Below are positions 21,995 through 23,191 of a stretch of 64,000 nt of DNA, one piece after another. The position numbers and the translations under genes are program-made. A model generated the notes under the pieces. That model did not search any database and had not been told where the DNA came from. It was given only the letters and a program-made list of their open reading frames with translations. Source of the DNA: Escherichia coli (GTDB lineage Bacteria; Pseudomonadota; Gammaproteobacteria; Enterobacterales; Enterobacteriaceae); NCBI GenBank assembly GCA_025544715.1, contig GCA_025544715.1_4109.2; one strand, written 5' to 3'. Numbering within the stretch: position 1 is the first letter of the stretch; each line of letters opens with the position of its first letter.

Positions 21995-22023
21995 ATTATA
22001 TCAGTACTGAACTATTTAGTCAA
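21995..22023 (-). promoter_or_regulatory. sigma70-consensus promoter (TTGACT-17-TATAAT) driving the tRNA cluster
   Basis: predicted start about 7 nt after -10 coincides with tRNA-Ser 5-prime end; copy 1 of a repeated ~30-bp promoter cassette. Confidence 0.6.
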
Positions 22024-22391
22024 GTACTATTTTCGGAAAAAACCTTCTGCAACACTTTAAATATCACAGAATTTAATTCATGTGGGAACACATTTTCATA
22101 TACTGTGCGTTTCTGAAATTCATCTTCTTCATCAGCACTTAGCTGGAAGGTAATGTATTGAGCATTTATACTACTTATTATATCACGTAAAGTGTTATTT
22201 GTCCTTTTTATTTCTTCAAATGATTCAAAAACAATTACATCGTCATTTATAAGAAATGATTCACCATATTCCTTGAAAATGCGAATTCCAGGATTATCTT
22301 TACACCAGTTATTGGTATGGTCTGTCGTTAATTTTGAATTCAAAAATGATTTAAGAAACTCTTCATACTTTGAAATGTCTTTAACACTCAT
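22020..22391 (-). CDS. EE-x-FFQ-x-S motif paralogue family protein
   Basis: C-terminal ADEEDEFQKRTVYENVF. Confidence 0.5.
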   Translation of the reverse strand: MSVKDISKYEEFLKSFLNSKLTTDHTNNWCKDNPGIRIFKEYGESFLINDDVIVFESFEEIKRTNNTLRDIISSINAQYITFQLSADEEDEFQKRTVYENVFPHELNSVIFKVLQKVFSENST

Positions 22392-22753
22392 ATCACCAAC
22401 TTTAATTAAAAAAATGGATGGTGACGCGTTTAAACGCCGCTGTTAATTCAGCTTTATAACCACCCGTTTTAACTTACCTTTCGGCTACCTTGACGTGGGG
22501 CGTACAGGCTACTAAAAGCAACTTCTGTAAACATATTTCCACGCCTTACCATTTTAAATAAAAGTCCATCCGGTTTTCCAGTTTGGTGAAGGACTGTCAC
22601 CTCTAGTTTCAACCTGCTAGTCAAGTAATAATTGCCTATCGTCCAATTATCAAACCCGTCTAGGTTAACATTCACCACTTCCTAGAGTACCAGAGATCTT
22701 GTTCTGGATAGCATCGACGTAACTTACACCATATACGTCTGATTGTGGAATTC
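22392..22753 (-). ncRNA. candidate promoter-driven structured RNA or long leader (~360 nt)
   Basis: ORF-free, visibly GC-richer stretch immediately downstream of a consensus promoter. Confidence 0.25.
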
Positions 22754-22782
22754 ATTATATCAGTACTGAACTATTTAGTCAA
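22754..22782 (-). promoter_or_regulatory. sigma70-consensus promoter (TTGACT-17-TATAAT), cassette copy 2
   Basis: near-identical to the cassette at 21995-22023. Confidence 0.55.
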
Positions 22783-23132
22783 GAATTAATTCGCATTTTT
22801 TTGAATTCACCAACCAAGTACTTATAGAACTCATAAGTGAACAATGGTTCTTGTACAGTACTCATTTGAAAATATTCTTCTTCTGTCTTTGGTACAGGGG
22901 AAGTATATGAAATATAGGGATTATAATCTTCTCCTACATAAGTAGAAACTTCAATATTAATTGAACTAAGATCTTTATGTAACAAGATGTTTAATATAAC
23001 AGTTCGTTGGTCAGGAGTTTCTTCATTTTCCATCCACTGTAAACACAATCTCATCAGTTTATCCCAAAGATAAAATTGGAATTTGTAATCTTCAAGGTTG
23101 CGTTTTATTGCTTCTTCATATTCACTAAACAT
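22779..23132 (-). CDS. EE-x-FFQ-x-S motif paralogue family protein
   Basis: C-terminal KTEEEYFQMSTVQEPLF. Confidence 0.55.
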   Translation of the reverse strand: MFSEYEEAIKRNLEDYKFQFYLWDKLMRLCLQWMENEETPDQRTVILNILLHKDLSSINIEVSTYVGEDYNPYISYTSPVPKTEEEYFQMSTVQEPLFTYEFYKYLVGEFKKMRINS

Positions 23133-23163
23133 ATCAAGTTGCCATATAAGTTAAGATACAAAC

Positions 23164-23191
23164 ATTATACAGTACTCAATTATTTAGTCAA
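23164..23191 (-). promoter_or_regulatory. sigma70-like promoter (TTGACT-16-TATAAT), cassette copy 3
   Basis: third copy of the promoter cassette, CAGTACTC variant. Confidence 0.5.

Follow-up and report, generated by a model that had tools for sequence, protein, structure and literature searches.

Here we describe a promoter-rich locus in a 64,000-nucleotide stretch of DNA from an Escherichia coli assembly (contig GCA_025544715.1_4109.2), hereafter called the window. The window belongs to an Asteriusvirus, a jumbo phage of E. coli from the 121Q/PBECO4 group (which includes G17 and slurp01), and its genes lie on the minus strand. Three copies of one short promoter-like element fall within a 1.2-kb part of it. 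A sequence-only reading of this DNA had pointed to these repeats as strong early promoters that may also serve as recombination substrates. We followed the copies within the window and across related phages. The three predicted promoters are:

21995-22024, minus strand: promoter copy 1 (-35 at 22018-22023, TG at 22002-22003, -10 at 21995-22000)
22754-22783, minus strand: promoter copy 2, the exact 30-mer (-35 at 22777-22782, -10 at 22754-22759)
23164-23192, minus strand: promoter copy 3, preceded by an A9 tract (-35 at 23186-23191, 16-nt spacer, -10 at 23164-23169)

The promoter copies and the units they head

Sequence search finds the 30-mer CTTGACTAAATAGTTCAGTACTGATATAAT exactly twice on the minus strand, as copies 1 and 2, and in 0 of 100 dinucleotide-preserving shuffles. 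Copy 3, CTTGACTAAATAATTGAGTACTGTATAAT, departs from it by two substitutions and one deleted base. The near-identity of the three repeats, as first reported, thus holds. Their sites had also been given correctly, except that 21995-22023, 22754-22782 and 23164-23191 each omit one base, the 5' C. The likeness of copies 1 and 2 ends a few bases beyond the 30-mer (43 nt at 91%, with unrelated flanks), so that the promoter alone, rather than a gene, has been repeated.

In layout, the 30-mer runs TTGACT, a 17-bp spacer and TGaTATAAT, matching the sigma70 consensus at 11 of 12 positions: the -35 of copies 1 and 2 agrees in 5/6 bases, the -10 in 6/6, and an extended -10 TG is present. Copy 3 scores 11/12 as well, with its spacer of 16 nt. 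All three copies therefore have the hexamers of a sigma70 (RpoD) promoter at the usual spacing of 16-18 bp, together with an A/T-rich tract resembling an UP element (A9 for copy 3, A7 for copy 2, T6...A4 for copy 1), and copies 1 and 2 also have the extended -10 TGn. The hexamers are near-perfect, on the coding strand, and each copy stands directly upstream of a transcription unit, so the earlier assignment to sigma70 is borne out at the level of predicted promoters. The related jumbo phages PA5oct and CBB are known to rely on the host RNA polymerase and on RpoD-like early promoters. Taken together, this supports the prediction that a single strong early promoter of host type (sigma70) is present in three copies, from which transcription would initiate strongly and early in infection, 6-9 nt past each -10 (near 21988, 22746-22747 and 23157).

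Near-consensus sigma70 sites (at least 11/12) number 35 in the window, 33 of them on the coding strand. A looser scan of the window gives sites no more numerous than in shuffles, and only the near-perfect sites therefore carry signal. Minus-strand examples lie at 452, 4763, 9706, 11068, 12914, 28088, 28635, 30495, 44567 and 62753; several of the near-consensus sites score 12/12. A partial fourth relative of the repeat, at 4736-4763 on the minus strand, has the -10-proximal half AGTACTGTATAATGTTTrTATC in common with copy 3, and a downstream motif, TATAATGTTT, recurs at 4736, 23164, 27968, 45756 and 51831. A -35-like word at 20716-20732 lies inside an open reading frame (ORF) and has no -10; we did not count it as a family member.

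Two further features of the repeat matter for what follows. The spacer contains a 10-bp palindrome, TCAGTACTGA, and the full form of the promoter, AGTACTTGACTAAATAGTTCAGTACT, has two AGTACT sites 20 bp apart; in copy 1 the second of these overlaps the -35 at its 5' edge. In addition, the stop codon of the upstream gene is embedded in the -35 hexamer TTGACT: the TGA of ORF117 (22779-22781, minus strand) in copy 2 and the TGA of ORF123 (22020-22022, minus strand) in copy 1. A crossover anywhere in the repeat would thus retain the upstream stop and at the same time supply a complete promoter to whatever lies downstream.

The units behind the promoters are, in the direction of transcription:

22779-23132, minus strand: ORF117, phrog_34619, no assigned function; headed by copy 3
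22564-22749, minus strand: module A, a predicted 186-nt structured RNA with helices P0-P7; headed by copy 2
22408-22550, minus strand: module B, a predicted structured RNA of ~143 nt; Y-shaped 3' stem domain, then T7 (22408-22414)
22020-22391, minus strand: ORF123, phrog_38341, no assigned function; downstream of the putative module B terminator, without a promoter of its own
21899-21988, minus strand: tRNA-Ser(GCU) (ARAGORN; Rfam tRNA, 58.9 bits); headed by copy 1
21816-21894, minus strand: tRNA-Met, after tRNA-Ser(GCU)
21718-21802, minus strand: tRNA-Asn, after tRNA-Met
21114-21653, minus strand: HNH homing-endonuclease gene (PHROG HNH families down to 3e-33; weak NUMOD3 match)

Copy 1 heads the tRNA-Ser(GCU)/Met/Asn operon, followed by the HNH gene, which begins 65 bp downstream of the last tRNA gene and ~340 bp from the promoter; of the relatives, WPEC5 and JP4 alone carry this gene. 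Between the end of the -10 of copy 1, at 21995, and the start of tRNA-Ser(GCU), at 21988, there are 6 nt. The first base of the tRNA is thus the seventh past the hexamer, the canonical +1, in agreement with the sequence-only reading, which had placed the predicted start exactly at the tRNA-Ser 5' end. The primary transcript is predicted to be leaderless, and would not need RNase P processing at its 5' end. Leaderless transcription of tRNAs is known, for example in Nanoarchaeum equitans, where promoters are likewise spaced for a start at the tRNA +1; in the window such a start is predicted from spacing only. In the alternative tRNA-Ser cassette of the 121Q type, the tRNA starts 10 nt after the -10, which leaves a leader of ~3 nt, so the leaderless start is not conserved.

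Beside copy 3 and ORF117, five paralogous small ORFs starting with MTHEEW occupy 23205-23691, 24163-24363 and 24688-24864 (minus strand). Three of them, each of 54 aa, form an overlapping tandem and the others are interspersed with tRNA genes. Both that were scanned belong to phrog_10970, which has no assigned function, and the tandem varies from 2 to 3 copies among relatives.

Two predicted RNAs behind copy 2

The sequence-only reading missed that copy 2 heads what we predict to be non-coding RNAs. Copy 2 is followed by ~340 nt without a convincing ORF, at 40-43% G+C, a value near that of the tRNA genes and much higher than in neighbouring coding DNA (~31%). The stretch ends in a stem followed by T7, after which ORF123 begins. 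It is 97-99% conserved in Asteriusvirus and, in a distant-mode search, ~81% conserved in the Klebsiella Alcyoneusvirus phages RaK2 and K64-1. A 69-aa ORF (22469-22678) was considered as a gene and rejected: it belongs to no Pfam or PHROG family, unlike all neighbouring ORFs, it runs across two RNA modules that are found apart in other phages, and no frame stays open across the homologues.

The first ~190 nt of the stretch, module A, travel more widely, being 85-91% identical to unannotated DNA in other phage groups. Homologues are present in six phage groups, mostly within tRNA clusters. They occur in the T4-like Bragavirus phages PM2, Pm5461, vB_Mm5 and vB_SdyM_006, where module A exactly fills the gap between tRNA-Gly and tRNA-Asp, and in T5-like Novosibvirus phages, where it takes up the space from tRNA-Leu to tRNA-Ser; its strand is that of the tRNAs in either group. 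In Aeromonas phage 65, which has a shorter core, and in a viral contig of 120 kb, the homologue adjoins tRNA genes. GenBank records matching this stretch number 59, and in none of them is an RNA annotated there.

From their arrangement in other genomes, modules A and B are best described as units independent of each other. In RaK2 they are separated by a promoter-like site (TTGAAC, 17 nt, TATAAT), and in the metagenomic contig L024 by a tRNA. In EJP2 the order is promoter, module A, tRNA-Ser, and in JNE01 the promoter copy is fused directly to module B.

For module A, helices P0-P7 were drawn by hand on a 12-sequence alignment, from which the covariance model R1 was then built; a first fold by MAFFT and RNAalifold, in which variable stems were misaligned and local hairpins missed, was replaced. 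In the 12-sequence alignment no pair is broken, 4 pairs are changed on both sides and 5 change to G·U. Among 14 distinct sequences from the six phage groups, aligned by R1, 98.5% of cells are paired and 19 of 43 pairs show changes on both sides; this alignment is fitted to the model and so favours the structure. A weak match of 23 bits in G17, a remnant of module A, was excluded from the final counts. On each of five measures, none of 500 shuffles reaches the real value, and sliding the 3' partners by 1-3 columns reduces pairing to only 19-39%. Whole-stem compensatory replacements in P1-P4 and P6 are visible in the raw sequences. Two loop elements are invariant: GACGAUA, and UUGACUAGCAG...AAACUAGAGG.

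Module B, folded by RNAalifold on 9 sequences, has 39 pairs, 5 of them with compensatory changes, and a predicted GAAA-tetraloop hairpin followed by the Y-shaped 3' domain before the T-run. In this model the 3' stem and T7 look like an intrinsic terminator. The 5' domain is common to Kuravirus podophages (XT18, L014 around 1500), whose version also contains the words GACGATA and AGATGGA typical of module A. RaK2 has a second 3' Y-domain like that of module B upstream of module A (L012, 2440-2500; GGATGATTATAAATCTGAATTGACAG...TTATTATCC and a T-run), which suggests that the terminator-like domain may itself be a reused module.

Searches for known relatives returned little. Rfam 15 gave no match at gathering score to modules A and B in the window; over 22350-22800 at E <= 10 it gave only two chance matches (E > 7), and at E <= 1 nothing overlapped the module homologues in 7 other loci. 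The module A core was not found in 185,579 bacterial and archaeal genomes, and in the literature its sequence was not found printed in a phage context. The loose pattern GACGATA...TGACTAGCAG hits 29 loci, 24 of which are chance matches in coding DNA. One locus, at ~518-620 of an IMG/VR contig of 42,950 bp (L029), reads GACGATAAGG...CTTGACTAGCAG...AACTAGCGG and resembles the module A core with an inserted hairpin; R1 does not match it, and it is either a very divergent relative or chance. We also considered that A and B together (~350 nt) might be a miniature RNase P RNA, from words like AGUCC, ACAGAA and GGUAAGG. This idea was dropped: the modules occur independently, with the promoter-like site of RaK2 and the tRNA of L024 between them, and no RNase P model matches.

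The closest precedent may be the stable RNAs of T4, rnaC and rnaD (species 1 and 2), which are likewise stable-RNA-like genes among phage tRNA genes on the same strand. By analogy, the enzymes that process tRNAs presumably also release modules A and B. Homology is not apparent (blastn-short finds only 7-8-nt words, E >= 0.5), the T4 RNAs measure 139 and 119 nt against 186 and ~143 nt for A and B, and module A, unlike them, is common to several phage families. All in all, the comparative evidence indicates that copy 2 heads two previously undescribed structured RNAs.

Promoter copies and cassette content in related phages

Compared with Asteriusvirus genomes, the surrounding 5-kb region is 91-94% identical over only 40-86% of its length and aligns in 2-8 pieces, which marks it as hyperplastic. 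The promoter family is limited to Asteriusvirus, with 3-6 places per genome, and, more loosely, Alcyoneusvirus (3-10 overall). Eight relatives keep it at the same three positions, and more than 30 genomes conserve the positions even though their flanking genes have diverged to 81%; in 121Q all four copies are inside one 1.3-kb stretch. At copy 3, the eight relatives depart from the 30-mer core only by a one-base deletion. At the position of copy 1 there are three variants, alpha, beta and gamma. Alpha has the sequence of copy 2, which fits conversion between copies, and the other genomes have beta or gamma there.

The sequence-only reading had proposed that such repeats act as recombination substrates and that cassette content be compared between related phages. 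In 11 related genomes, the scope of the recombination comparison below, insertions, deletions and replacements indeed begin or end inside the copies, and cassette contents change at them. Around copy 2, ORF117 and the promoter of module A are separated in 121Q, PBECO4, E9.1 and JP4 by a 66-bp piece, which begins with a half-promoter, CTTGACTAAATAATTCAGTACTGAGGATATT, followed by a mini-ORF of 9 aa. The piece is absent from the window, WPEC5 and G17, with the junction inside CTTGACTAAATA, and copy 2 of the window thus reads as a recombinant relative to 121Q. In the same interval, ELP-22 carries an extra cassette of tRNA-Gly and an ORF with its own promoter copy. In JNE01, module A is lost and the junction lies inside the -10.

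Around copy 1, two alternative tRNA cassettes, S1 and S2, both begin right after the -10. JP4 has the two in tandem, each behind its own promoter copy, with the HNH gene in between. Identity to the window switches exactly at copy 1: in 121Q it is 98-100% through ORF123 and copy 1 and then 72% from tRNA-Ser on, while ELP-22 stays at 98-99.5% as far as module B, falls to 85% across ORF123 and copy 1, and reaches 100% in tRNA-Ser. Upstream allele, promoter variant and downstream cassette are combined in nearly all possible ways. ORF123 has two alleles, about 97% (I) and about 82% (II) identical, which are found in all 4 combinations with S1 and S2 and in all 6 combinations with alpha, beta and gamma; alpha-S1, alpha-S2, beta-S1 and beta-S2 are all present. 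As examples, 121Q is I-alpha-S2, PBECO4 is I-beta-S1 and slurp01 is II-beta-S2. From these junctions we infer that the repeats may cause exchanges, rather than merely marking sites where exchange is tolerated.

Mechanism, precedents and competing explanations

To explain these results, we propose that copy 3 drives ORF117, that copy 2 drives module A, module B and the terminator with read-through into ORF123, and that copy 1 drives the tRNA-Ser/Met/Asn operon with a transcript starting at the mature 5' end of tRNA-Ser. Identical over ~30 bp, the copies would act as portable homology patches that join cassettes seamlessly. Recombination between copies, either within one genome or with co-infecting relatives, would then insert, delete or swap the cassettes between them. 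We consider this combined reading, strong early host-type promoters doubling as short portable homologies, the probable one, and have greater confidence in the promoter function taken alone.

The closest known system is that of the promoter-early stem-loops (PeSLs) of T4-like phages (Arbiol et al. 2010, PMC2839356; Comeau et al. 2014, PMC4122927). In both cases a near-consensus sigma70 early promoter with an AT-rich upstream tract is repeated (PMC2839356) in a hyperplastic region of small genes without assigned function, organized in cassettes that have their own promoter. In both, the elements delimit the stretches in which close relatives differ by indels or replacements, and decayed halves of elements, here CTTGACTAAATAATTCAGTACTGAGGATATT, persist at junctions (PMC4122927). 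The differences are as clear. A PeSL contains a stable stem-loop/terminator, which is absent from the Asteriusvirus copies: they have no G/C-rich stem and no T-run, and within 72 nt of context their folding is not superior to that of shuffles (z = -0.46, +0.38 and +0.71). In copy 1 only, the two AGTACT motifs can pair into a weak hairpin (-10 kcal/mol), a stability matched by 60 of 200 shuffles. Neighbouring PeSLs are further characterized by circular excision products formed between them (PMC2839356). The conserved length is ~30 bp instead of ~100 bp, and there are 3-6 copies per genome at one locus of 1.3-2.5 kb instead of about 50 dispersed elements. The Shine-Dalgarno sequence and ORFan start codon of a PeSL are found only at copy 3 (ORF117); copies 1 and 2 stand before RNA genes instead. 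Finally, the stop codon of the upstream gene is built into the -35, and the phage is a jumbo Asteriusvirus. The copies would thus work like PeSLs while falling outside their definition.

Several observations weigh against this combined reading. A homology of 30 bp is short, and the exact 30-mer is not required at copy 1, where beta and gamma have a weaker -35, TGGACA. In G17, phAPEC6 and Sharanji, most of module A and all of module B were lost through a junction inside module A that used no copy, and the JNE01 junction rests on a -10-like microhomology of only 6-8 bp. Selection would tolerate junctions at the boundaries of functional units whatever the mechanism, and the nearby HNH homing endonuclease could drive conversion. 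On the promoter side, a literature search gave no transcription-start or expression data for Asteriusvirus.

Some of these points come together in an alternative in which the mosaic arises from conversion initiated by a homing endonuclease, combined with ordinary homologous recombination in conserved flanks, the promoter copies being passive islands at the boundaries. The HNH gene, variably present among relatives, adjoins the tRNA operon, JP4 has one between its tRNA cassettes, and the G17 deletion uses no promoter copy. A precedent exists in the T4 tRNA cluster, where SegB promotes preferential inheritance of that region, and we count this case in favour of endonuclease-driven conversion. 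Against it, the 66-bp piece, the ELP-22 cassette and the JP4 tandem each lie between two direct repeats derived from the promoter, which is the mark left by exchange between repeats, and promoter variants assort independently of both flanks. The half-promoter relic at a junction also has its parallel in the degraded half-PeSLs near indels (PMC4122927). Indels enclosed by repeats and such a relic speak against the copies being purely passive, and we regard this alternative as rather unlikely.

Another possibility is that the promoters are kept identical not by recombination but by selection for a regulator, the palindrome TCAGTACTGA or its extended form AGTACTTGACTAAATAGTTCAGTACT serving as the operator of a dimer-forming protein, from the phage or the host, by which the RNA-gene promoters would be switched jointly. 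In fact, CAGTACTG is kept beside the -10 in alpha and beta and recurs at promoter-like sites at 4736-4763 and 55690-55721, and a roughly six-fold, clade-wide enrichment of AGTACT at the DNA level suggests that some protein reads this word. The window contains 144 AGTACT sites against 21.9 expected from base composition (~6.6-fold), and 122 within ORFs against 19.9 +/- 4.4 in codon-order shuffles; all three frames contain them, and non-coding DNA has them about as densely. Loci of Asteriusvirus and RaK2 (also L001, L005, L006, L012, L020 and L023) show an excess of 6.5-8.9-fold, which is absent from T4-like and T5-like loci of equal G+C; CAGTACTG itself occurs 27 times in the window. However, with AGTACT about once per 440 bp across the window, the word is no specific mark of promoters. 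Moreover, the gamma variant has AAGTATTG instead of CAGTACTG, copy 3 of the window has GAGTACTG, and a regulator would not account for indel junctions in the copies. We think it unlikely that an operator is the reason for the identity, though it is compatible with portable promoter homologies and both can hold. As for chance matches or non-functional leftovers of duplication, the lack of matches in shuffles, the positions conserved in more than 30 genomes and the near-perfect, correctly spaced consensus directly upstream of three coding-strand units leave them with almost no credibility.

More tentatively, the observations may be joined into one picture, which we consider possible but on balance doubtful. 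Copy 2 would drive a new family of phage stable RNAs. One of them, module A, would have passed horizontally, in company with tRNA genes, between jumbo phages, T4-like and T5-like phages and those of Aeromonas, with promoter-bounded cassettes as the vehicle. Its role would lie in tRNA biology or in taking over the host; it might, for instance, decoy or inhibit a host enzyme that processes tRNAs or targets them in defence. AGTACT, which flanks the promoter too, would be the site of a phage system that binds or modifies DNA.

A literature search returned no description of the promoter family, of modules A and B, or of the AGTACT bias. The structured RNAs may matter more than the promoters. Module A, which at least four groups of virulent phages share without being related and which nearly always sits among tRNA genes, is a candidate for a new functional phage RNA, and the clade-specific, six-fold AGTACT excess at the DNA level is a second signal. 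The comparison also adds in silico evidence for promoter-bounded cassette exchange in a jumbo phage. If the copies are indeed both strong early promoters and recombination linkers, shuffling of the PeSL type would extend to jumbo phages and to cassettes of RNA genes, in a simpler form that dispenses with the stem-loop and has the upstream stop built into the -35. This would help to explain how the tRNA regions of phages diversify so rapidly.

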